Of a stretch of DNA of 64,000 bases, positions 19,237-57,365 are shown in pieces. The translations under genes and the position numbers were made by a program. Every line of letters starts with the position of its first letter. Positions within the stretch are counted from its first letter, which is position 1. A model generated the notes under the pieces. That model had not been told where the DNA came from. It ran no database searches and was given only the letters and a program-made list of their open reading frames with translations. This stretch comes from a virus. Where the stretch lies: the IMG/VR virus record IMGVR_UViG_3300036715_000153, positions 64,001 to 128,000 of that record. One strand, given 5' to 3'.

Positions 19237-20767
19237 TCGCTCTCAGCTGTTTAGCTCTTGGAGGTAAACAGGAGTTAGCTCCTCTGAAAACCAACTTAAT
19301 TGAATATGTTTTAAACTCTGCCAAACCTCTGACTTCCAATGTATAGTCCTTAAACTCTGTAGCAGTGGTAGATAGTACAGGAGTTATCGGATAAGCCAAT
19401 AATACCCAACTAGAATCAGCTACAGTATCAGTGTCGGAAACCTTATAATATACATCTATCATATTGCCGGTAGTAATATTAGCAGCAAACGATATCCGTA
19501 TAGACGTAGCCTTAGTATCCAATGTAATCGGCTTGGCTACATATTTGGATATAGACGACCCCGCATTCTTATCTGTCTCAGCAACTACACGTCGAGACGG
19601 TACGTTAGTTTCGTCATCAAGTAGATGGTCAACCATGACCACATTCATTAGATCCTGTCGAATAATAGGAGATACGTTTGCATTTGAAGTGCTAATCGTT
19701 GCCTTAATAAGCAAAGGCTCAGTCGATGGTAGAAACGCCGCCTTATTATTGACAGACGGAACCATAATAGGATCCTTCAGGTCTATATCAGTGTTCACGT
19801 CCAACTTCACATAGTCGGTCGCTGTAACGTACCTGGTCTGATTACCACCACGCGATCTACCGCTAGTTGTTTTAATGTAGAAATCGCAGTTTGTGCTGGG
19901 CGGCTTAACATACCTAGTCGTCACGTTAATCAGATCTGCTTTAAGGTTGACAGTTAACATCATACTCTTAACATAGCATATACCGGTAGCTGTAGGTGGT
20001 GTACCTGTAACAGTTATACCGAATGAGTCGTTGTCTGCAACGGTAACAATATATTCCTTAGACACAGCTGCACCGCCTGCTCCATTCAACTGAACTACAG
20101 TGAGACCATTGAACGTGCTAGGTGCGGGGTCATTGACGCTTATGGACACCCGATCATTTACAAATAACCCGTGGTTTTTAATGTTAAAGTAGACAGTCGA
20201 TGAACCAGATACAGTTTCAAGAATATGTCCATTGACAAACACCGGATTTAGGGGAGTAGATTTCAGTGTAAGGTTATATACAGTATTGGTTGTAAATTGA
20301 GCCTTGTATAACCTGAACATCAAGTCAGACGATGTATCCGGTGTCCACGTTGTACCGCCGTTTGCAAGGTACAATACACCCGGGTTAGGTTGTTTAGAAA
20401 TAGATGTAGACTTGTTTATCGCTACCTGACCTATTTGTGCAACCCACGCATTATATCTGTCTGAGTTGGTTCTAAGAATAATTGCATATTCTTTATCCTC
20501 TTCCAACACGACCGGACCACTGAACACGAACTTGGTTGCAGTCTGGGCATAATCACTAGTACCGACTTGGGAGGCAGCCATTATTACAGTGGAGTTGGGT
20601 ACATTAGTCTCACTAGGAATACCTTCGTTTGTTGTCCTAATTTCGAGTACAATGGGAACCAGTTGGTCTTTCGTTTTAAAGAATATATCAACCGCAGTCA
20701 AATACATTCCGCCCTTAATGCCGTTTGTATTGAATGTCTGTGCGAACGATGTTGTTAGTTTAGGCAT
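19220..20767 (-). CDS. VrlC/DUF4815-like virion protein, C-terminal segment
   Basis: AQTF...YLTAVDIFFKTKD...DLMFRLYKAQF, SKYVAKPITL, LRAIAL. Confidence 0.75.
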   Translation of the reverse strand: MPKLTTSFAQTFNTNGIKGGMYLTAVDIFFKTKDQLVPIVLEIRTTNEGIPSETNVPNSTVIMAASQVGTSDYAQTATKFVFSGPVVLEEDKEYAIILRTNSDRYNAWVAQIGQVAINKSTSISKQPNPGVLYLANGGTTWTPDTSSDLMFRLYKAQFTTNTVYNLTLKSTPLNPVFVNGHILETVSGSSTVYFNIKNHGLFVNDRVSISVNDPAPSTFNGLTVVQLNGAGGAAVSKEYIVTVADNDSFGITVTGTPPTATGICYVKSMMLTVNLKADLINVTTRYVKPPSTNCDFYIKTTSGRSRGGNQTRYVTATDYVKLDVNTDIDLKDPIMVPSVNNKAAFLPSTEPLLIKATISTSNANVSPIIRQDLMNVVMVDHLLDDETNVPSRRVVAETDKNAGSSISKYVAKPITLDTKATSIRISFAANITTGNMIDVYYKVSDTDTVADSSWVLLAYPITPVLSTTATEFKDYTLEVRGLAEFKTYSIKLVFRGANSCLPPRAKQLRAIALAI

Positions 20768-21792
20768 GTGTTATTCTTTTTATCCATGAATATTGTTACT
20801 GTAGTTGCTAACCGGAACATAGCGATAATGGACAACATAAGATATGCTCTAGCAATGCCGCACGATTTCGGCTTGCCGAATATTCTATTTTTAATCCCAA
20901 CCAGCTTGCTAATAGGGACACCGAATGTCATTAGGAACTTACCTGTTATGTTACCTTCGTGGTATTTACCTTGTCTAAAAGCCATCTCATGTGTCCACGG
21001 GATTATCATATCAATGGCCCACTGTGTCAGCAGATTTTGTGCGATAGTCCTATCTTTCTTCCAGAAGAAAACATCTGGTCCTTTACCACTCATTATGTCA
21101 ACTGCATCAGATGCCCATGAGAGATACCCGAAGTATGTATCTGGACTTGTTCTTATTGTATCCAACCCATACTGTTTGTCTGCATTATATATTGTTTTAT
21201 TTATATAGCCAAGTTCATACATCTTGGTACATATAACAGTGCCTCCGCCGCCACCTTGAATCCACGGTTTAGATGGAGCCGGTGGAACAGGTGGGTCTGG
21301 AGTCCACACCTGGGTGTACACGTTGATGGGCACGTCCTCTATATAAGGGTCCTTGAAGATGGTGTTACCCTCAGCAATAAATACAGAATCAGCATAAGTT
21401 ACTTCACGCGACGGGTCTAGACTGTTTGTTATACGCAATATCTTTCTGCCTACGACAAATCTGTTGGCGGGAAGATAGAATCTAGCATAAACTGTACCAT
21501 TAAGTCCGACCACCATCTGACTACCGATTGCGGCAGCACCAACAGAGTTTGCATTATATTCCGCCTCAGTCAATGGCTTGCACATAGCAGACACATCTAT
21601 ATTATCGAATGTGACGAATACAGGTGTGTAAGGCCCTAACGACATACCCTTAATGAGAATTTCTTTAGCGTGTATATATGGGACAGATACGTGGTTAGCA
21701 TCGGCTGTCCCAACGTTGATTATAGGTGTGCTCCAAGTCCTGTACTTAGTAGTTGGTACTAATATTGTAGTAACTTCTGTATGATATGCCAT
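20755..21792 (-). CDS. VrlC/DUF4815-like middle segment plus C-terminal GGGGTVICT domain
   Basis: PYIHAKEI...PYTPVFVTFDNIDVS; Pro-rich linker; then VICT...YG...GYLSWA. Confidence 0.65.
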   Translation of the reverse strand: MAYHTEVTTILVPTTKYRTWSTPIINVGTADANHVSVPYIHAKEILIKGMSLGPYTPVFVTFDNIDVSAMCKPLTEAEYNANSVGAAAIGSQMVVGLNGTVYARFYLPANRFVVGRKILRITNSLDPSREVTYADSVFIAEGNTIFKDPYIEDVPINVYTQVWTPDPPVPPAPSKPWIQGGGGGTVICTKMYELGYINKTIYNADKQYGLDTIRTSPDTYFGYLSWASDAVDIMSGKGPDVFFWKKDRTIAQNLLTQWAIDMIIPWTHEMAFRQGKYHEGNITGKFLMTFGVPISKLVGIKNRIFGKPKSCGIARAYLMLSIIAMFRLATTVTIFMDKKNNTCLN

Positions 21793-31905: not shown

Positions 31906-32603
31906 TTAAAATTGAAGGAAGAAATGGGTACAACGTTTTAGACCACGGCATGGTAGCACTCGTTGAAAGTATGGGTAGTGATCTGTCAATTGTGCGAAAT
32001 GCACGAGTGTCCTATGATGCCGAATGGCGTACAGGTGAAGATGATGGTAAAGATGCAAAACTTATCAATTATCTAGTTAAAAATAATCACACATCACCAT
32101 TGGAAGCTGTGCAGTTTACGTTCGAAGTAAAGGCTCCTATATTTGTGTTCAGACAGTGGCATCGTCATCGCACTTGGTCATTTAATGAGATTAGCGCAAG
32201 ATACTCTGAGTTGCCAGCAGAATTTTATATTCCAGATTTGAATCAGATTACGAGCCAACATTCTAGTAACAAGCAGATGCGTACTACCGATCAACATGAG
32301 CACGCAGAAATTTGGCAGAAGATTATGCGAGATAGCAACGCTGTGTCGTTTAGCCATTATCGCGGTATGATTGCTGATGGTGTTCCTCGTGAGCTTGCCA
32401 GGACAGTGCTACCTGTTGCTACGTACAGTAAAATGTTCGCAACTGTAGACTTATCTAATCTTATGAAATTTGTTTCACTGCGTAGCCATGATCATTCACA
32501 GTATGAAATTCGTGTGTACTCGGATGCTATGCTTAAAATTGCTAAAGAAGTTTGTCCAATTGCTGTCGCGGCATTCGAAGAAAAGTTTGGGGTCAAATCA
32601 TGA
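31902..32603 (+). CDS. thyX: Flavin-dependent thymidylate synthase
   Basis: HTSPLE, RQWHRHRTWSFNEISARY, RELARTVLP. Confidence 0.97.
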   Translation: MIKIEGRNGYNVLDHGMVALVESMGSDLSIVRNARVSYDAEWRTGEDDGKDAKLINYLVKNNHTSPLEAVQFTFEVKAPIFVFRQWHRHRTWSFNEISARYSELPAEFYIPDLNQITSQHSSNKQMRTTDQHEHAEIWQKIMRDSNAVSFSHYRGMIADGVPRELARTVLPVATYSKMFATVDLSNLMKFVSLRSHDHSQYEIRVYSDAMLKIAKEVCPIAVAAFEEKFGVKS

Positions 32604-49622: not shown

Positions 49623-49793
49623 TCAATTTCCTGTTTGTATAATAGTAACTGGGCCGTGTCCTGCAGTTACATCTTCCCTAAACACTTTACGCTGAATAGC
49701 CACATACTCAACAAAAGTCATCGGTGTTTTCTGTCTAGACTCCAGCGTGCGTACGTAGCTAATATAACCTTCGTTGTAGAATTTGTCGTTCAT
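49623..49793 (-). CDS. Small early protein (56 aa)
   Basis: MNDKFYNEGYISYVRTL...; AAGGAG RBS, its own promoter and terminator. Confidence 0.65.
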   Translation of the reverse strand: MNDKFYNEGYISYVRTLESRQKTPMTFVEYVAIQRKVFREDVTAGHGPVTIIQTGN

Positions 49794-49822: not shown

Positions 49823-49851
49823 ATTATACATTACATTTCAAACAAAGTCAA
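49823..49851 (-). promoter_or_regulatory. Early sigma70-type promoter
   Basis: TTGACT-17 nt-TATAAT followed by CACTACA. Confidence 0.75.
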
Positions 49852-49867
49852 CCTATTTGTATGCGTG

Positions 49868-49895
49868 AAAAAGCCCAACTTAATGGGCTTTTTTT
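49868..49895. terminator. Rho-independent terminator ending the enzyme operon
   Basis: AAAAAGCCCA-ACTTAA-TGGGCTTTTTTT. Confidence 0.8.
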
Positions 49896-49896
49896 A

Positions 49897-50937
49897 CTAA
49901 GCTACGTAGTTCTTTACCATTGTTTGCCAGCCTTCTTGTCCTTCATAAGCTGCACACACCTTTAATGCGTTAACTAGCGTTCTCATGTTAATGCGGTTTT
50001 GCTTACCGCCAGACTCTTGAATAAATTCAAATACTTCTTGTCTGAGCTTATTGCTAAGTTGTAGATTCTCAGGTAACTCGATCTTATTAACGAGCGAACG
50101 CATTACTTCTAGCATCTCGTCTTTCGTAGGATTAATCTCCATAACAAATCCACGAGTACGAATAGCACCATCTGGGTCTAACTTCTTAATACTTACGTTT
50201 GCTACGAGAATAATCCCGCCTTCGAAGTTAAAGTATCTTGGTAACTGCTCTCCGCCTTCTTCCGGCTCTTCTTGGAAAGCTGGATCGTAATAGTTACCGC
50301 CCTTCTTGTTAAAGCTGATCTTACGAGTCTTACCGGAATCGGTTGCTGCCTTAATCATGTTACGAACTTCTGGGTCATTCATCAGAGTGTCACACTCATC
50401 AAACAGTATAATCTCTTTGCGGTGGTTGAATAACGTTTCGTATGTTGCTGCGGCAGATCCAGCACCGACTGTCTTAAAGTATCCATCACCATCAGATAGT
50501 CCCGCTGCTCTCATCTCAGACTCTAGGTTATGAGTATTGTGATGTAATACTCCTGCTGCGTCGTAGTAAACATGTTCGTTGCTATCTACAGAAATATCAT
50601 ACAGGTCTACAATTTCATCAGAAACAGCAACTTCGGCGACAACCTCTGTAGAATCTTTACCAAGAACTACGTTACCAAACACTAGATTGGATGCTTTAAC
50701 TGTGTCGTTTGATTCAGTCACAAACATATGACTGCAACCACAATTCACTACCTTACCGGAGTCGAACGTAACAGTGCAGAGTTTATCTTGTTTGCGAATA
50801 AATCCAGATATTGGTTTGTATCCGGTTGGGGTATTTGTTTCTAGTCCAAGAGATTCTATATTATATAGATAATCCAGTTGGGGTTCGGTAATGTTATACA
50901 GGTCGAGTACCTGTAATTTAATGTCGTTTAAGTTCAT
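49897..50937 (-). CDS. AAA+ ATPase, C-terminal half, fused to a C-intein
   Basis: C-intein ends VLHHN; then THNLE, Walker B IILFDECD, sensor VAN, Arg finger AIRTR. Start ATG 50937 or TTG 50967. Confidence 0.88.
   Translation of the reverse strand: MNLNDIKLQVLDLYNITEPQLDYLYNIESLGLETNTPTGYKPISGFIRKQDKLCTVTFDSGKVVNCGCSHMFVTESNDTVKASNLVFGNVVLGKDSTEVVAEVAVSDEIVDLYDISVDSNEHVYYDAAGVLHHNTHNLESEMRAAGLSDGDGYFKTVGAGSAAATYETLFNHRKEIILFDECDTLMNDPEVRNMIKAATDSGKTRKISFNKKGGNYYDPAFQEEPEEGGEQLPRYFNFEGGIILVANVSIKKLDPDGAIRTRGFVMEINPTKDEMLEVMRSLVNKIELPENLQLSNKLRQEVFEFIQESGGKQNRINMRTLVNALKVCAAYEGQEGWQTMVKNYVA
50536..50937 (-). other. C-intein (134 aa)
   Basis: TPTGYKPI, CGCSH (block B), LYDISV (block F), HVYY...HHN followed by +1 Thr. 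Confidence 0.9.
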
Positions 50938-50999
50938 AAGCCTCTTCTTTAGCTGTCTGTTGTTCAATGTATCTTGGCGAGAAATCCCACGTATATCTT

Positions 51000-51044
51000 T
51001 TAATTAGATGTGCGTATATCTAATTCGGTGTCTTGGCGTAAACA
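51000..51044 (-). other. N-intein, 14 aa
   Basis: CLRQDTELDIRTSN* directly after Walker A GPGGTGK. Confidence 0.8.
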
Positions 51045-51890
51045 CTTACCTGTTCCGCCGGGGCCCGTAAGCATTAATAGATTAGTTGCACCAGACTTAA
51101 TCAGTCTTACAAATCCACGTAGATGTTGTAGTTGATCTGCGTACGCAACCTTCTCTGCTTCATCTTCTAGATCGTTCGTAGAACCAGGTGTGATGTCTTG
51201 TTCTTTAGCCATAGACTTAGATACGCGAACTGTTGCACCGCCTGCTGCTTCCAGTGCCTTAGCGTAGTCAATCTTAGACGGGCTGCCGATGAACACTGGG
51301 GATTTACCAGACGTATCAAATACAGATGGGTTAGTTTCTACGATTACTTGGAACAGTTTAAACTCTGGACGTCCAAGTGCTAACTTAACTTCTCGATAAC
51401 CGATCTTATCTCCAACATTCATCTTAGCTACGTATGCGCGAATGTTGTCTGCGATCATCGAAGACATTTCATTCAATACTTCTGCTTCGGTTAACTCAGA
51501 CTCGTTTACATCGACTGGAACGAAGTCGAACTCTGCTACGCGAGGAGTTTTAAGGATGTCGACGATCTGTGGCAGGATCTTAACGATAGATACGCTGTGG
51601 TCGAATGTAACATCGAACTTAGTATCTTTGTTCTTCCATATAGTAATCGAATCTAGTACATCTTGATTTAATGATTTACCCAGCCAGTTAAACCGGACAC
51701 ACGAGTCCGTCTTATAAAAGAAACGCACACCTGTAAACGTTTTGCCTGCAACCATAAACGTTTCGTATCCAGGCATACGATGGAAAGTCTGACCGACTCT
51801 TTTAGTTAAATACTTCTGGATTAGTAATGCGACGACGTGAACGTCTTTAGCGTTCACTGCCTCTACTAGGTAGTCACTGTATGATTTCAT
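51000..51890 (-). CDS. AAA+ ATPase, N-terminal half, with capsid-targeting-like N-terminus
   Basis: MKSYSDYLVE start; LMLTGPGGTGK then intein Cys1; late motif at 51917-51924. Confidence 0.85.
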   Translation of the reverse strand: MKSYSDYLVEAVNAKDVHVVALLIQKYLTKRVGQTFHRMPGYETFMVAGKTFTGVRFFYKTDSCVRFNWLGKSLNQDVLDSITIWKNKDTKFDVTFDHSVSIVKILPQIVDILKTPRVAEFDFVPVDVNESELTEAEVLNEMSSMIADNIRAYVAKMNVGDKIGYREVKLALGRPEFKLFQVIVETNPSVFDTSGKSPVFIGSPSKIDYAKALEAAGGATVRVSKSMAKEQDITPGSTNDLEDEAEKVAYADQLQHLRGFVRLIKSGATNLLMLTGPGGTGKCLRQDTELDIRTSN

Positions 51891-51912
51891 GTTGGATAGG
51901 TGTTGTGTAAAA

Positions 51913-53394
51913 TTATAATTTAGTGTAATTTGAAAAAGACATTAAGCTAGACTCATTCATTTTTGTTTTAGCAAGATCCCAAATATGTTTAGCTTGCGCA
52001 TCAGTGGTCTTACTTGGAAGATATTTAGCAAATGACGTGTAATCTCCATCACTAACAAACTTACGAATCTTAGTACCAGAAATCCCAGAAACATCATCGT
52101 CAGAGTCAGGATCACGCTCGCCTGCAGACACCACCTTAAAGCCATTAAGATTAATAGAAGTTTTTGGATTACCATTGTTCAAATATACCTTTATCTTTGA
52201 TTCGAATTCCGATACTCTATCTGACCCGACTACGAGAGTAACATCTGTATAACCCTCATCTGCTAATTTCATAAGTGCAGTGAACACAGTCGTAGGTGTG
52301 TCTTGTTTAGTATATATTACATCACCAAATAAACTAGAAAGGAACTTCGCCTTGTCATCAAACGACAGGGGATTCTTTTTCTTATCGTGCGACTTACTTA
52401 GAAAAACGATTGGAGTGGCGTGTTCTGTCTTTGCAATAGATATAACCTTGTCGATAAGTAACTCATGTCCAGTAGTTGGGATGTTTAGTCTACCGAACGT
52501 TATTACTGCTTTCTTTAATGCTACGCCTTCAGTCAGATGTTTAACGATATCTGCGATAGCACGATTCTTTTCATCGCCCTTGGGGGTATTTACTTCCCCA
52601 GACTTCACACTCACCATAGAAGTAAATACCCCAGCCATACGAGTCTTAGCACGCTGAGTCTTAATCTTAGACTTTACATCTTTGAGAAGATCGTCGAATG
52701 ATTGATCTAGGTTATACTTATACAACAATGTTTCTACGTCTTTAAAGTTCTTTGACTTCCATAGAATCTCTCGATCCTTTTGTTTAAACGTACCAGGCTC
52801 GTATGTAACTTTTCTAAGTTGGAGTTCTTGTCCAGAGAGATTGAATTCCCACTCTTGATCTTTGTCCAGCTTAGTCGGAATTTTGATACCCAGAGAGGCG
52901 AACAATGTTTTGACGGGAGTCTCGACAGTAGCAACTTTAACTAATCCGAGCACGATACCTTGTACTTCTGCAGGAAGATCGAGGAACCTACCCTTAAAGT
53001 GTGCCTCTTCTTTATCTAGCGCACACATGTTATCTATCTGAGCCGAGTAACCTAACTTCTTATCGTGATAGCGAATAGTGACCAACTCACCCGTATTACC
53101 GGTACGCTTACCGGCATGTTTATCTGATGTAAAGGGCTCGATGACAGAATCTGGCATTGCCTCGAAGAACTTAACTAGGGCTAGTTTAAGTGCCTTCTTG
53201 TCGGAGTATCCATCGAAGTGTACGATGATGTCGATGTCGCCGAACGAATCTTTATCTGGATTAGAGTTATACGAACCGGATGGCTTGAACGATACAAATC
53301 CGGGAAACTTCGATATAATCTTTTCGTAAGACGCAAGGAACTGTTTGAAATGTTCTCTCGATTTTACTCTGTCTGCCCCAGTAGAACCCGACAT
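51913..53394 (-). CDS. Fusion of a Pol-beta-like nucleotidyltransferase and a HIGH-class cytidylyltransferase-like domain
   Basis: SGSY...GDIDIIV; TFGRLNIPTTGHELL, KKNPLSF, VVGSDRV, SAGERDPD, ISGTKIR. Confidence 0.8.
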   Translation of the reverse strand: MSGSTGADRVKSREHFKQFLASYEKIISKFPGFVSFKPSGSYNSNPDKDSFGDIDIIVHFDGYSDKKALKLALVKFFEAMPDSVIEPFTSDKHAGKRTGNTGELVTIRYHDKKLGYSAQIDNMCALDKEEAHFKGRFLDLPAEVQGIVLGLVKVATVETPVKTLFASLGIKIPTKLDKDQEWEFNLSGQELQLRKVTYEPGTFKQKDREILWKSKNFKDVETLLYKYNLDQSFDDLLKDVKSKIKTQRAKTRMAGVFTSMVSVKSGEVNTPKGDEKNRAIADIVKHLTEGVALKKAVITFGRLNIPTTGHELLIDKVISIAKTEHATPIVFLSKSHDKKKNPLSFDDKAKFLSSLFGDVIYTKQDTPTTVFTALMKLADEGYTDVTLVVGSDRVSEFESKIKVYLNNGNPKTSINLNGFKVVSAGERDPDSDDDVSGISGTKIRKFVSDGDYTSFAKYLPSKTTDAQAKHIWDLAKTKMNESSLMSFSNYTKL

Positions 53395-53691
53395 TTACGC
53401 TTTACCGTTCCACTTTGAATATCCTTCATCGGACAGATCGTGTTTAAATACGCGATTCACAGGGTATGCAGATATAGTGCCGTCCTTAAGTTCTACGTGA
53501 ATCATCGTAGCACCGATCTTCTTTACTTTACCGACTATAGTTTGACCTACTGTAGTTCCTGGTACGCGGACATCGTCACCGACCTCTGGCTTGTAGACTA
53601 CCTTCTTTTCGAATGCTTCTTGTAATTTTACAGATTTTGTCGGCTCATGTCCGAGGTACTCATCACCCAAAAACTCTTTAAAACTTTTCAT
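53395..53691 (-). CDS. Small putative internal head protein (SH3/KOW-like)
   Basis: MKSFKEFLGDE start; VGDDVRV...GKVKKIG. Confidence 0.65.
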   Translation of the reverse strand: MKSFKEFLGDEYLGHEPTKSVKLQEAFEKKVVYKPEVGDDVRVPGTTVGQTIVGKVKKIGATMIHVELKDGTISAYPVNRVFKHDLSDEGYSKWNGKA

Positions 53692-54311
53692 TGTAACCCC
53701 TTAATAGATCCGTCGTGTAGTGCTTCGTATGCGTAGAAGTTAATATCTGGGTATTTGTCTTTCATTCCCTGAAATGCTGTTAGATTAGCCATTGCGTCAT
53801 CAAACAGTCGAACGCTACCATAACTACCGTTATCTATGTATTTAGTTATAATCTCTACCTTACGCTCGGCACTCGATCCACTACCTAGATTACCCGCTCG
53901 CTCTACGTACACTTTGTCTATATCAAATCCGTGTTCTTTAAATGTATTAAGGAATAGATCTTTGTTATCGAAGTCGGCTCGAGCAGTAATGATGATCATC
54001 TTACTATTAGGCATAGACTCTATTCCCTTTAGGATTGCCTTAGCCCTATTCATCATCTTGACGATTACCTTAGATGACTCGTTAAACTTCTTAGCATCTC
54101 TGAATTCGCCAAAGTCATACGACTCGCCATCTTTCAATTTGTAAATATTGAATTCACGATTAGTTAATCTCTTTACAACTTTACCGTCCTTCATAACAGA
54201 AATCATTGCGAAGGTATGAAATAGGGTATCGTCGATATCAAATATGGTGAGACCATCTATACCATGTTTGGCTGATGCCTTTTCTGAGATAAACTGTTTA
54301 AACGATTTCAT
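53688..54311 (-). CDS. HAD-family phosphatase
   Basis: IFDIDDTL (motif I), ITAR (II), K (III), LFDD (IV); MKSFKQFISE start. Confidence 0.88.
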   Translation of the reverse strand: MKSFKQFISEKASAKHGIDGLTIFDIDDTLFHTFAMISVMKDGKVVKRLTNREFNIYKLKDGESYDFGEFRDAKKFNESSKVIVKMMNRAKAILKGIESMPNSKMIIITARADFDNKDLFLNTFKEHGFDIDKVYVERAGNLGSGSSAERKVEIITKYIDNGSYGSVRLFDDAMANLTAFQGMKDKYPDINFYAYEALHDGSIKGLQ

Positions 54312-55285
54312 TTTAGTAATTCTGAATCGGGCGGAAGGAACTTTCCGGTGAGCCCTAGCTTAGCTTTACGCTTTTTCCATTCAGCTTGGAGATTGTCGGG
54401 AACGTCGCATCTTGTACTGTCTAATATCTTAAGATAGATATCTACCCAAGCATCGTACTTGTCTTTAGGTAGCTTCTTAATAATATCGAACAGTTTATAA
54501 TAATTTTGTCTGTCTGCTGTAGTTATCTTTGTATGTAGCGCGTCTGATAATACTTTCAATGCCTTGTCTGGATCGGTTGCAATAACCTCACCAGTTTCCT
54601 TATCTTTAACTCCAGACACGTGATTAAATGACATACCTGCTACTTGGAATAACGCCAACATCCCTTGGGTAGCGTGTAAACCTTTCACGTTAGAATCTTC
54701 GGGGTACACGTCACCATAATAGCTAAACTTCAACCAGTTTATGTTACCTGCCATCCAGTCGATCTGAACCCCGATGCCTATATCTTTACCTTCAGGACTT
54801 ATCTGCGGAAATAAACCAAAGATATTACCTGCAGTGACTTTATTTTCATCGCAATATAGTCTAGGGGCATGTGCATTAATATATACAGTCAGACATTTTA
54901 AGAACGCCTTAAATGATAGTTGTTCTGGCGTCGACGTCTTAGCCCGCTTCTCAAGTTTAGCAAATTCTGCATGTACGTCTTTGGGGTCTATCCCCCACTC
55001 AGCAATAGACTTATCAGACATAGTTGCATCTAGTAAAGATGATGTATCTATTCCTAAGTCGATGTCTCCACTGTACGCCTTTTTACCAACTGAACCGAGT
55101 GGATGAAAGTGTTTGTCATTGAATATCGAGGCCTTCTTGGGGAAGATTTGTTTCAGTTCCTTGAAGTATGCGTCTAACGTCGGCTTAATGTATTCTAGCT
55201 TAATGGAGGCAGTCTTACCCTTGAAGACGTTTCCGCCCTCAGATAGTTGTTCTGTTGTGATGAATTGTAGATATGATTTTATCAT
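54308..55285 (-). CDS. Pol-beta-superfamily nucleotidyltransferase
   Basis: LGSVGKKAYSGDIDLGID, VQIDWM, KGLH; start MIKSYLQFITTEQLSE-GGNVF. Confidence 0.78.
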   Translation of the reverse strand: MIKSYLQFITTEQLSEGGNVFKGKTASIKLEYIKPTLDAYFKELKQIFPKKASIFNDKHFHPLGSVGKKAYSGDIDLGIDTSSLLDATMSDKSIAEWGIDPKDVHAEFAKLEKRAKTSTPEQLSFKAFLKCLTVYINAHAPRLYCDENKVTAGNIFGLFPQISPEGKDIGIGVQIDWMAGNINWLKFSYYGDVYPEDSNVKGLHATQGMLALFQVAGMSFNHVSGVKDKETGEVIATDPDKALKVLSDALHTKITTADRQNYYKLFDIIKKLPKDKYDAWVDIYLKILDSTRCDVPDNLQAEWKKRKAKLGLTGKFLPPDSELLK

Positions 55286-56346
55286 TTTGAGTTTACCTGC
55301 ATGTCGTATAAATCTGCGCCCTTTTCAATATAGTTCCGGACGTACTGGGTTTTGCTTTCTAACTTCATTCTGATTCGTAGCAGATCGACAACCTTACCAC
55401 TTGCATCTTTAGAAGTAATTAATACCTGAGGATACTTTCCATCGCTCTTAACGACAGCAACTATCTTATTCGGGAACACTAATGTCTTAGGATTATAAAC
55501 CTTAGAAACTTTATTTAAATGTACTAATTCTATGTCCTCTGTTCCTATCATGAAGTGAACGATAGCGGATTTTAAAGTCTTTCCGGATGTTTTTTCTGAC
55601 GAATCGTTGTAACCCGGTTCCCCCGATATAGCTTGTGCTAGTTCTTCGTAGCTGTATTTTATCGCAGAGTTAATATCGCCTGCTGCATAAAACTCGGTAT
55701 ATTTTTTCATAACGGAAGGTGGAATAGTAAACCCAAACAGATCCCAAAGAACTTCTTGCTTTGCTGGCTCTGCCCCACCGATCTGCCCAAACTGCTTAAC
55801 TACACCTGCTTTCAGAGATACCGATAAGTTTAATTCCGTTTTACCGTTTGGGCCAGACACCTTAACATACACGTCTTGTTTGGTTCCGGTTTGATTGCCG
55901 ATCCCGTCTGCTACGAAATCCATAACATTGACTTGGTTATTCGTATAGAACAACATTGCAGTAGATTTTAGGTTGGCATCGTTTACATAGTGTAGCGCTG
56001 CATCTGTAATAGGCTTGATCCTTTTATTGGAAAATATATCTGGACTGAACAGTGCATCGAGGTTACTCTTAGCTAGTCGAATCGTTAGGTTAATTTCATC
56101 CTTGATATGTGGATTTTCGTTTGGTGCTTGCCATGTAGCCATAACGGTGTCATTAGTCGTTCTACCTGCTGCGGCAGTCACCGTTTTCATAATGTCTTTG
56201 ATGTCTTGCAATACGATATCGCTGTCTCTTTTCATAAACCGCGCAACACATGCTAAGATAAATATGCCTTCAGCAACGTCTCCGGCGTTAAACTTCGTTA
56301 TATTCCCAGACACTTCCTCAAGTAAAAACTCTTTATAGCTTAACAT
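55282..56346 (-). CDS. Putative PD-(D/E)xK-like nuclease, internal head protein candidate
   Basis: MLSYKEFLLEE start; GDVAEG, TKQDVYV, SVSLKAG; late motif at 56410-56417. Confidence 0.6.
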   Translation of the reverse strand: MLSYKEFLLEEVSGNITKFNAGDVAEGIFILACVARFMKRDSDIVLQDIKDIMKTVTAAAGRTTNDTVMATWQAPNENPHIKDEINLTIRLAKSNLDALFSPDIFSNKRIKPITDAALHYVNDANLKSTAMLFYTNNQVNVMDFVADGIGNQTGTKQDVYVKVSGPNGKTELNLSVSLKAGVVKQFGQIGGAEPAKQEVLWDLFGFTIPPSVMKKYTEFYAAGDINSAIKYSYEELAQAISGEPGYNDSSEKTSGKTLKSAIVHFMIGTEDIELVHLNKVSKVYNPKTLVFPNKIVAVVKSDGKYPQVLITSKDASGKVVDLLRIRMKLESKTQYVRNYIEKGADLYDMQVNSK

Positions 56347-57365
56347 TTTTTCCATTTCCCGAATTCAAGCATAGCACGGGCACCACGAAAGGTCCATGCG
56401 TCTAATTCTAATTTAGTTCCCGCGCACACTGCATCATTTAGGTCTTTATGTGCGAACGAGTCGGGAAATATAACTACATTGAAGCCATGCTCGATCGCAG
56501 TCTTTAACTTCTTTACCCCGACAGGTGCGCGTGGTTCATTATCGAAGACCAATACAAGATTCTCTTTGGGTAACAGATATGCTGCTCGCTCAAGCGATGC
56601 GTCTGCCGTAGCAACACCATTAGGCACCATCATGGAATCTATCGGCCCTTCTGTCACATATATTGGGCTAGATTCGTCGACCAGCTCTAACCCAAACAGT
56701 TTCAGTTCGTCCTCAACCTTGGTAGTGAGATACCGTATTTTGGGATTCGCATCTAGAGAACGACCCTGCATGAATACCAGCTTACCTTCTTTATTCCTAA
56801 ACGGAAACACAACGCGGCAATCGTCGGGTAGCATACTTGTATCTATATCGTAGCCAAACTCTGCTGACATTTCCTTGACCGACGATTTGTAGCCCTCGGT
56901 GTACATGATACGATTCCATTGATCTTTTGGAATCATTCTACTCTCTAGATACTTTACCGCTGTGTGGTTACTGGGAAGCTCTGTAACGGTATAGAAGAAG
57001 TCCGCGATTGTTTTCTTCGAAGGTAGTAATACTTTGCTCGACTTGACCGTCGCATAATCAAATTCCTCTTTAGGTTTAGATACGGATAGCGATTCTAGTT
57101 GGTATTCGGCGTACAGTCCAGGATCGATTTCCTTTATGAACTTTGACAGGTGCATAGACGCTCCGCAGTTAAAGCAACCATATATAAGGTTACCACCGCG
57201 TTCAAATATTGTACCTCGAGTTTTTGTTTTATTACTTTGAGAGTCGCCGCACAAAGGACACGACATAACCCAATTAGAATTTCCCTTATTTTTGAAATTT
57301 CTAATATACGAAAGTCTGTTGGCAAACATAATTTGAATATATAGCGGAATTCCTTTACTTAACAT
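56340..57365 (-). CDS. gp61: DNA primase
   Basis: CPLCGDS/CFNCG zinc finger, QGRSL, TEGPIDS, FDNEPR, KDLND. Confidence 0.95.
   Translation of the reverse strand: MLSKGIPLYIQIMFANRLSYIRNFKNKGNSNWVMSCPLCGDSQSNKTKTRGTIFERGGNLIYGCFNCGASMHLSKFIKEIDPGLYAEYQLESLSVSKPKEEFDYATVKSSKVLLPSKKTIADFFYTVTELPSNHTAVKYLESRMIPKDQWNRIMYTEGYKSSVKEMSAEFGYDIDTSMLPDDCRVVFPFRNKEGKLVFMQGRSLDANPKIRYLTTKVEDELKLFGLELVDESSPIYVTEGPIDSMMVPNGVATADASLERAAYLLPKENLVLVFDNEPRAPVGVKKLKTAIEHGFNVVIFPDSFAHKDLNDAVCAGTKLELDAWTFRGARAMLEFGKWKKC

Follow-up and report, generated by a model that had tools for sequence, protein, structure and literature searches.

We describe a cluster of seven open reading frames (ORFs), all on the minus strand at 49897-56346, in a window of 64,000 nucleotides (nt) that corresponds to bases 64001-128000 of the 140,394-bp virus record IMGVR_UViG_3300036715_000153, which carries direct terminal repeats. 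Five of the seven ORFs begin with a peptide resembling the capsid-targeting sequence (CTS) of bacteriophage T4, or five of six proteins when the intein-split ATPase encoded by two of the ORFs (p6 and p7) is counted as one. Very probably these leaders serve as address tags of the T4 kind that a protease would remove. By analogy with T4, the cluster probably encodes capsid cargo that would be loaded into the head, cut by a gp21-type protease and delivered with the DNA, a reading to which we give a probability of about 0.62. The related N-termini had been pointed out in an earlier note on this DNA, and the ORF starts match those quoted there. The genes are listed below in order of transcription, with coordinates referring to the window and arrows marking predicted cuts.

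55282-56346, minus strand: p1, 354 amino acids (aa); leader MLSYKEFLLE↓E (MLSYKEFLLEE), then a predicted restriction-endonuclease-like PD-(D/E)XK nuclease

54308-55285, minus strand: p2, 325 aa; 16-aa leader ending QLSE↓GGNVF (MIKSYLQFITTEQLSE), then a predicted family-X-like nucleotidyltransferase (NTase) with the palm and thumb of DNA polymerase (Pol) beta

53688-54311, minus strand: p3, 207 aa; leader MKSFKQFISE↓K, then a predicted HAD-superfamily phosphatase

53395-53691, minus strand: p4, 98 aa; leader MKSFKEFLGDE, then a small basic protein, like a T4 internal protein

51913-53394, minus strand: p5, 493 aa, without leader and starting MSGSTGADR; predicted Pol-beta-type NTase (residues 1-290) and HIGH-motif cytidylyltransferase-like domain

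51000-51890, minus strand: p6, 296 aa; leader MKSYSDYLVE↓A, a domain of about 270 aa, Walker A GPGGTGK and a 14-residue N-intein

51003-51044, minus strand: the N-intein, CLRQDTELDIRTSN, 14 aa

50536-50937, minus strand: C-intein, from an ATG behind the ribosome-binding site AAGAGG to ...VLHHN

49897-50535, minus strand: C-extein (p7), the rest of the AAA+ ATPase, beginning with Thr+1; Walker B ILFDECD; phrog_1250

The capsid-targeting sequence of T4 is MKTYQEFIAE (10.1101/2021.01.19.427310). Mutational work on the T4 internal protein IPIII assigned targeting to residues 4 and 7, both aromatic, and cutting to the aliphatic residue 8 and to Glu10 (PMC9026906). The leaders of p1, p3 and p6 fit these determinants exactly (Tyr/Phe, Phe/Tyr, Leu/Ile and Glu). 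A start-codon scan of the whole genome (about 191 genes) identified only two tagged genes beyond the cluster, both outside the window and on the minus strand: one of 94 aa starting MKTYKEFLSE, identical to the T4 sequence in 8 of 10 residues (20721-21005 of the genome), and one of 243 aa that begins MSFKSYLNE and belongs to the head module, where it lies between the portal and gp21 genes (52231-52962 of the genome). The chance of finding five of seven tagged genes within one seven-gene run of the 191 was about 4e-5, corrected for all windows. Codon usage for the shared leader residues differs between the copies, indicating that the peptide and not the DNA is conserved and that selection acts on the peptide. 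The leader was disordered and outside the fold in both AlphaFold2 (AF2) models (p1 and p2), and the predicted mature proteins are basic, with isoelectric points (pI) of 8.0-9.2. The tag is also modular, with the p1, p3, HIGH-NTase and ATPase families each occurring with and without a leader. In T4, EcoRI and staphylococcal nuclease fused to the leader were packaged and delivered (PMC9026906).

Judged by its genes, the source of the window is a T4-like phage. The genome encodes a gp21-type S77 prohead protease (PF03420, E-value 7.6e-36) and a gp23 major capsid protein (PF07068, E-value 5.4e-112), and the head module follows the T4 order of portal, three small genes, protease, acidic scaffold and capsid. 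The capsid protein has ALQE↓A at the cut position of T4 gp23. The presence of protease and capsid protein, together with the match of the leaders to the published T4 determinants, bears out the earlier assignment of the N-termini to the T4 capsid-targeting type. The nearest named phages by capsid gene DNA were marine, including Pseudoalteromonas phage XG4, Methylophilales phage Melnitz and cyanomyoviruses, with an identity of about 67% over part of the gene length only. The cluster DNA had no near match among 50,697 phage records, and searches of the seven cluster proteins against Pfam, NCBIfam and PADLOC gave no above-threshold matches.

Cutting of the leaders is suggested by the junction between leader and enzyme in the relatives of p2. 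Metagenomes contain more than 800 such relatives, 60-73% identical and all unannotated; the junction statistics are based on the best 120, of which 115 have a leader and five start MGGNVF. The conserved domain always starts GGNVF[KA]G[KR]. The leaders preceding it are 6-27 residues long, and in some relatives leader and an extra domain together reach 194 residues. Glu is found at P1, directly before GGNVF, in 109 of the 115 leaders, and Leu, Ile or Val at P3, two residues before P1, in 114; as read from these alignments, the aliphatic-x-Glu before GGNVF is the gp21 cutting motif. A cut there would give p2 exactly the GGNVF N-terminus that removal of Met1 would leave in the five leaderless relatives, and because the two ends would be the same, cleavage is probably needed for p2 activity. 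Six relatives (P0070, P0083, P0095, P0097, P0098 and P0117) have some 120 additional aa, a domain with an HExxH motif, inserted after the leader and before E↓GGNVF, so that each would be a short polyprotein cut twice. In five of the 120 (P0005, P0026, P0039, P0040 and P0059) Cys replaces the Glu just before GGNVF.

A tag at the opposite end of the protein was identified in the p5 family, of which there are more than 2000 relatives in metagenomes. The N-terminus MSG[VS][AT]GADR is fixed in 120 p5 homologs, and leaders are few, short and Glu-terminated. Stand-alone forms of the N-terminal NTase (p5N) carry (L/F)GE↓S..MSFK[ED][YF]L at the C-terminus, and fused forms have the same stretch in the linker before the HIGH domain; p5 of the cluster has lost the linker tag and kept HLTE↓G alone. 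Taken together, the p2 junction, the C-terminal tag and the disordered leaders make little sense unless the head protease reads the leader as a tag to be removed.

Based on these observations we propose that the leader of about ten residues on p1, p2, p3, p4 and p6 would bind the nascent protein to the prohead scaffolding core, and that the gp21-type protease would cut after aliphatic-x-Glu, freeing the mature basic proteins inside the head. As with IPI-III and Alt of T4, they would stay with the DNA and exit with it at the next infection; on this analogy, head loading and delivery with the DNA are likely. Before that, trans-splicing would have to unite the products of p6 and p7 in a single tagged ATPase of about 495 aa, and the p2 leader may silence the enzyme in the producing cell. 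The cargo would comprise a restriction-like nuclease, a minimal Pol X-like NTase, a HAD phosphatase, a small basic protein and an AAA+ ATPase, and p5 would be either untagged and cytoplasmic or carried in by its constant neighbour p2. The likeliest target, and the weakest step of the proposal, would be nucleic acid at the very start of infection, where the enzymes might cut unmodified host or rival DNA or trim, fill or tail DNA or RNA ends. The predicted folds lean to DNA rather than to tRNA, protein or NAD as targets. The roles suggested in the earlier note (RNA 3'-end healing and re-tailing, NMPylation, and NAD or signal metabolism) found no specific support, the best fold matches being with DNA enzymes.

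The assignment of p2, previously labelled a Pol-beta NTase, can be sharpened to a predicted family-X-like enzyme. The nine best structural matches of its AF2 model (predicted local distance difference test, pLDDT, 92) were all family X polymerases (Z 8.3-9.2), among them Pol beta (Z 9.2 over 183 aa, covering Pol beta residues 142-338 only) and Pol X of African swine fever virus (ASFV; Z 9.0, with 164 of 176 ASFV residues aligned). Terminal uridylyl transferases followed (Z 5-7), and giant-virus Pol X entries were among the matches in a viral library. The three catalytic Asp residues, in GS...D74-x-D76 and at D176, are invariant in p2 homologs. Single-protein and profile searches against Pfam, NCBIfam and PDB gave no sequence matches of p2 to polymerases. 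As it lacks a lyase or fingers domain and a family sequence match, p2 is referred to here as Pol X-like and is not filed as a member of family X. A paralogous origin of p2 and the N-terminal half of p5 was considered and rejected, as there was no significant BLASTP or profile-profile match and only the order of motifs is common to both.

For p1, described before as nuclease-like, a HinP1I/MspI-like fold is predicted. The AF2 model (pLDDT 90.5) matched HinP1I and MspI with Z 7.5 over 197-204 residues, the runner-up having Z 4.9; in Foldseek the match to HinP1I had a probability of 0.96 but a weak E-value of only 2e-3. D158-X18-S177-x-K179 is invariant in 65 p1 homologs. PDB sequence searches with the single protein and with the family profile gave nothing usable. 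Most homologs have an N-terminal domain of about 95 aa in place of the leader and several have CTS-like leaders; a cyanophage homolog adjoins a DNA methyltransferase gene. The genome shows no avoidance of GCGC or CCGG, which HinP1I and MspI recognise, and this gives no clue to the target of p1.

The HAD motifs of p3 (DxDxT, T/S, Lys and DD) are all present and are invariant in 17 relatives, in line with its earlier label as a HAD phosphatase. HAD subfamily IIIB was matched by 10 of these 17, with additional weak matches to PNK3P and HAD_SAK_1; p3 of the window itself was below the Pfam and NCBIfam family cut-offs and weakly matched phrog_415, a polynucleotide kinase family. Many p3 relatives carry the same type of leader. 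PDB sequence searches with p3 and its family profile yielded nothing usable. We rejected p3 as a counterpart of the NT5C-type nucleotidase of Flavobacterium phage immuto, finding no real similarity. The mature product of p4 is predicted to be about 9.6 kDa with a pI of 9.2. The sole family match of p4 was to the MscS beta-domain, below the Pfam threshold; it is the only match in keeping with the SH3-like description given earlier.

The description of p5 as a fusion of an NTase and a HIGH-type cytidylyltransferase was borne out by the motifs TTGHELL (HxGH-type) and ISGTKIR (ISxTxxR-type) in the HIGH domain and by matches to phrog_3041 (6.5e-52) and phrog_395 (5.8e-37); PF01467 (CTP_transf_like) scored 19.6 in Pfam, with a cut-off of 21. 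PDB sequence searches gave nothing usable for p5, and no assignment to the NMNAT or PPAT subfamily could be made from them.

The AAA+ ATPase is predicted to be split by an intein inside the Walker A motif, between GTGK and T, with Cys1 on the N-part and the terminal HN and Thr+1 on the C-part. The C-intein is similar to CatC (consensus atypical split intein; E-value 7.4e-6), the gp41-1 intein and VidaL. In an Atlas structure search the C-extein matched viral clusters, several with AAA Pfam labels, at a TM score of about 0.8. Two homologs, P0393 and P0395 (493 and 498 aa), are unsplit, start MAIKSFTSFINE and MKQFKQFIAE and have an uninterrupted GTGKT, and the existence of such tagged relatives indicates that the real product would be a tagged full-length ATPase. 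The intein motifs, the similarity to CatC and VidaL and the unsplit homologs agree with the intein-split ATPase postulated from the ORFs. The N-terminal domain of p6 had no confident structural look-alike, and a pattern search of IMG/VR returned no relatives of it. A second intein start inside p7 (SLGLET) was considered and discarded, since the VidaL and CatC alignments place this stretch in later strands.

Signals that may govern expression of the cluster were as follows.

56409-56416, minus strand: late-promoter-like CTAAATTA within the 3' end of the primase gene, 61-70 nt before p1; spacing atypical

51916-51923, minus strand: late-promoter-like CTAAATTA at 33 nt before the start codon of p6; spacing typical

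49868-49894, minus strand: intrinsic terminator (hairpin and U-run) directly after the p7 stop codon, with a 10-bp stem, -13.8 kcal/mol and z -4.8

The T4 late promoter TATAAATA occurs eight times in the window, not enriched over the 7.3 expected, and is absent from the cluster. The related search with CTAAAT[AT] placed 14 of 55 sites 33-42 nt before start codons, where about 1% was expected, and the genes behind them include those for the major capsid protein, three baseplate proteins, a sheath stabiliser and a head-closure protein. This enrichment before structural genes identifies CTAAAT[AT] as a late-promoter-like motif of the phage's own. Of the late-promoter motifs claimed in the earlier note, both sites therefore stand as this motif and that of p6 has the typical spacing; the sequence is not that of T4, and the p1 site is atypically placed. 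The single terminator noted at the end of the cluster was recovered as the 10-bp stem hairpin. Successive genes from p1 to p4 have ATGA overlaps, and p5 starts immediately after the p4 stop codon. Past the terminator lies a near-consensus sigma-70-like promoter (49823-49851, minus strand; TTGACT, 17 nt, TATAAT), before a 56-aa ORF at 49623-49793.

Gene neighbourhoods, which the earlier note had suggested as a check, are conserved. In 73 of 80 IMG/VR loci (L040-L119) a p5N gene directly follows p2, forming a strict NTase pair; in the phage studied here, p3 and p4 intervene. Three contigs (L071-073) encode HAD, p2, p5N, a HIGH-motif enzyme and the unsplit ATPase in one operon, in which every cassette protein is tagged at the N-terminus except p5N, where the tag is C-terminal. 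Neither p1 nor primase genes were found beside p2 in the 80 loci. In many other contigs, too, the HAD and HIGH-motif genes are found together, and often a tagged protein family with a ligase-type K(W/Y)DG motif, about 400 aa long, is encoded beside them in these other phages (L014 7594-8763, L026 1186-2415, L028 3998-5233 and L035 7858-9069); a homolog of this family was looked for in the cluster genome and none was found. Two tagged genes in related loci (L004 9866-10579 and L005 10158-10598) resemble, by eye, an ADP-ribosyltransferase of the R-S-E type (LYRG, SWTAS, ELEF) and a ParB-like nuclease (NGRHRY).

Among cultured phages the NTase pair is found in immuto alone, and there the gene order matches: primase, nuclease, p2 homolog, p5-like fusion and HAD nucleotidase. 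Its DNA is fully fdPreQ1-modified, every guanine being a 7-deazaguanine (PMC10516641). The cluster genome encodes QueD (32041-32598); DpdA was not detected in it with the Pfam TGT model. Of 16 records with p2 (the whole records behind L045, L046, L064, L076, L087, L095 and others), nine carry QueD, among them each of the five whose completeness is 59% or more; QueD was present in none of five records with p3 but without p2. This is a weak control on a small set, the capsid-protein pattern search having given three short loci only, and the association of p2 with QueD may represent a functional link or only shared ancestry. Among the 50,697 phage records p2 is absent from all other 7-deazaguanine phages. 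As regards base composition, GGCC is rare genome-wide (observed/expected 0.42); GATC and CATG have observed/expected ratios of about 0.7, and AAGCTT, GTATAC and CATATG are avoided too.

Several observations weigh against the cluster being head-loaded cargo. The p4 leader has Asp10-Glu11 in place of Glu10, and this Asp10 may prevent cleavage, as Asp10 does in T4 IPIII (PMC9026906). The p2 leader is out of the T4 register by one residue, with a second site, QLSE, at residue 16, and p5 is untagged in the cluster phage. The immuto homolog of p2 is leaderless, a stop codon lying immediately before it, despite an S77 protease in that phage; this implies that the NTase pair can work without leader loading. 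The p1 gene overlaps the primase gene and its promoter motif lies at 61-70 rather than 33-42 nt, so that p1-p5 may also be read early, from the primase gene. The fold assignments are predictions, with moderate Z scores for p1 and p2 (7.5-9.2), and a literature search found no virion proteome data for the phage or any relative.

Some of these points would be accommodated by a cytoplasmic DNA-maintenance module located beside replication genes, serving for example 7-deazaguanine DNA, with the leader acting as a tag for assembly, regulation or translation unrelated to the capsid. The cluster adjoins primase both here and in immuto and, in the L071-073 contigs, genes for DNA polymerase, UvsX and helicase, and the leaderless immuto homolog and the untagged p5 would be expected of such a module, as would the best fold matches to DNA enzymes and the QueD data together with the fdPreQ1 DNA of immuto (PMC10516641). 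We consider this explanation unlikely. It does not account for unrelated proteins sharing the peptide of the T4 loading signal residue for residue, for leaders of 6-194 aa that always end in the gp21 motif before the conserved domain, or for a tag at the C-terminus where the N-terminus is fixed; the QueD link, moreover, may reflect common descent only, and p2 is absent from the other 7-deazaguanine phages in the 50,697 phage records.

A smaller chance still is given to the proteins being loaded and cut to serve the head itself, as core or scaffold components or as factors that condense or process DNA, rather than as injected effectors. The tagged 243-aa gene in the head module and the basic character of the predicted mature proteins fit this, as does the cutting of most T4 core proteins by gp21 (PMC9026906). 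However, catalytic motifs are conserved in hundreds of homologs, a sealed head would not hold the nucleotides and substrates they need, and the T4 proteins that bear the leader are ejected (PMC9026906). Lastly, although the motif is short and phage genes begin with AT-rich codons, an origin of the shared N-termini by chance or as a leftover of recent gene duplication is highly improbable in view of their clustering, the differing codons, the unrelated proteins behind the leaders and the same leader on homologs in many other phages.

Within the capsid cargo reading, a more specific version can be put forward very tentatively. The HAD phosphatase, the two Pol X-like NTases, which would require an exact free N-terminus, the HIGH transferase and the AAA+ ATPase would form a five-part machine, head-loaded and with p2 silenced by its leader until cut, that would act on DNA ends or lesions before phage genes are read; the nuclease would have joined it in this phage, and the machine would be tied to 7-deazaguanine phages. 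We regard it as a doubtful refinement of the general proposal.

The T4 loading signal is known on few head proteins, namely the three internal proteins, all small, and the enzyme Alt, whose propeptide is shorter. If the cargo reading is correct, distant marine relatives of T4 deliver whole sets of nucleic-acid enzymes by the same signal and protease, the repertoire of phage acts in the first seconds of infection, prior to transcription, is wider, and two large unannotated families (p2 and p5) acquire a role. Practical uses may follow for the natural, portable leaders and cut sites, in loading enzymes into T4-type capsids, and for the very short N-part of the split intein.

Several known systems resemble parts of the cluster. 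With family X polymerases, including ASFV Pol X, p2 shares the predicted palm and thumb fold and the three catalytic Asp; it differs in lacking the 8-kDa lyase and the fingers domain, in being extended by helices at the C-terminus and in its strictly fixed, glycine-rich N-terminus. The ASFV virion carries viral repair enzymes. The p1 nuclease resembles HinP1I and MspI in predicted fold and in the D-X18-S-x-K spacing (the HinP1I motif is SD-X18-QxK), and differs from them in the lack of a sequence match; its leader replaces a domain of about 95 aa. Atypically split inteins of the Cat, VidaL and AceL-TerL type have in common with the one described here a very short N-part and a long C-part, whereas the predicted 14-residue N-part found here lies in the Walker A loop of a capsid-tagged ATPase.

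The idea of enzymes delivered together with the phage DNA as infection begins is shared with polyvalent proteins and with the proteins that phages P1 (Dar), Mu and N4 inject. Such phage-delivered enzymes include Pol-beta-type NTases, ParB-like nucleases and ADP-ribosyltransferases (PMC5512222). Those proteins, however, are mostly large multidomain chains with MuF or portal domains and no T4-type leader, whereas the cluster consists of separate genes, each tagged gene with its own leader, and some relatives would be true polyproteins with internal cut sites.

The closest parallel is the capsid-targeted cargo of T4, which shares with the cluster the leader determinants, the gp21-type protease, basic mature products (predicted, in the cluster) and a variable gene set with the leader as the sole common part (PMC9026906, PMC3012670, PMC12373910). 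Alt shows that T4 cargo can be an enzyme and that cuts by gp21 occur C-terminally as well (PMC9026906, PMC3012670, PMC12373910). The T4 internal proteins of known function are inhibitors of GmrSD-type restriction, and all three internal proteins are small (about 8-20 kDa); here, in a phage distant from T4, the five tagged products include four that are enzymes by prediction, with masses of 22-55 kDa, and one of these would have to be made by trans-splicing. A literature search found no paper that connects the T4 signal with phages that are marine or uncultured, or with enzymes of this kind. Varied cargo for the signal was foreseen by Black's group (PMC9026906), and the principle of loading is known from T4; what is added by the present cluster are the predicted folds, the junction statistics, the C-terminal tag of p5N and the leaderless cultured relative.

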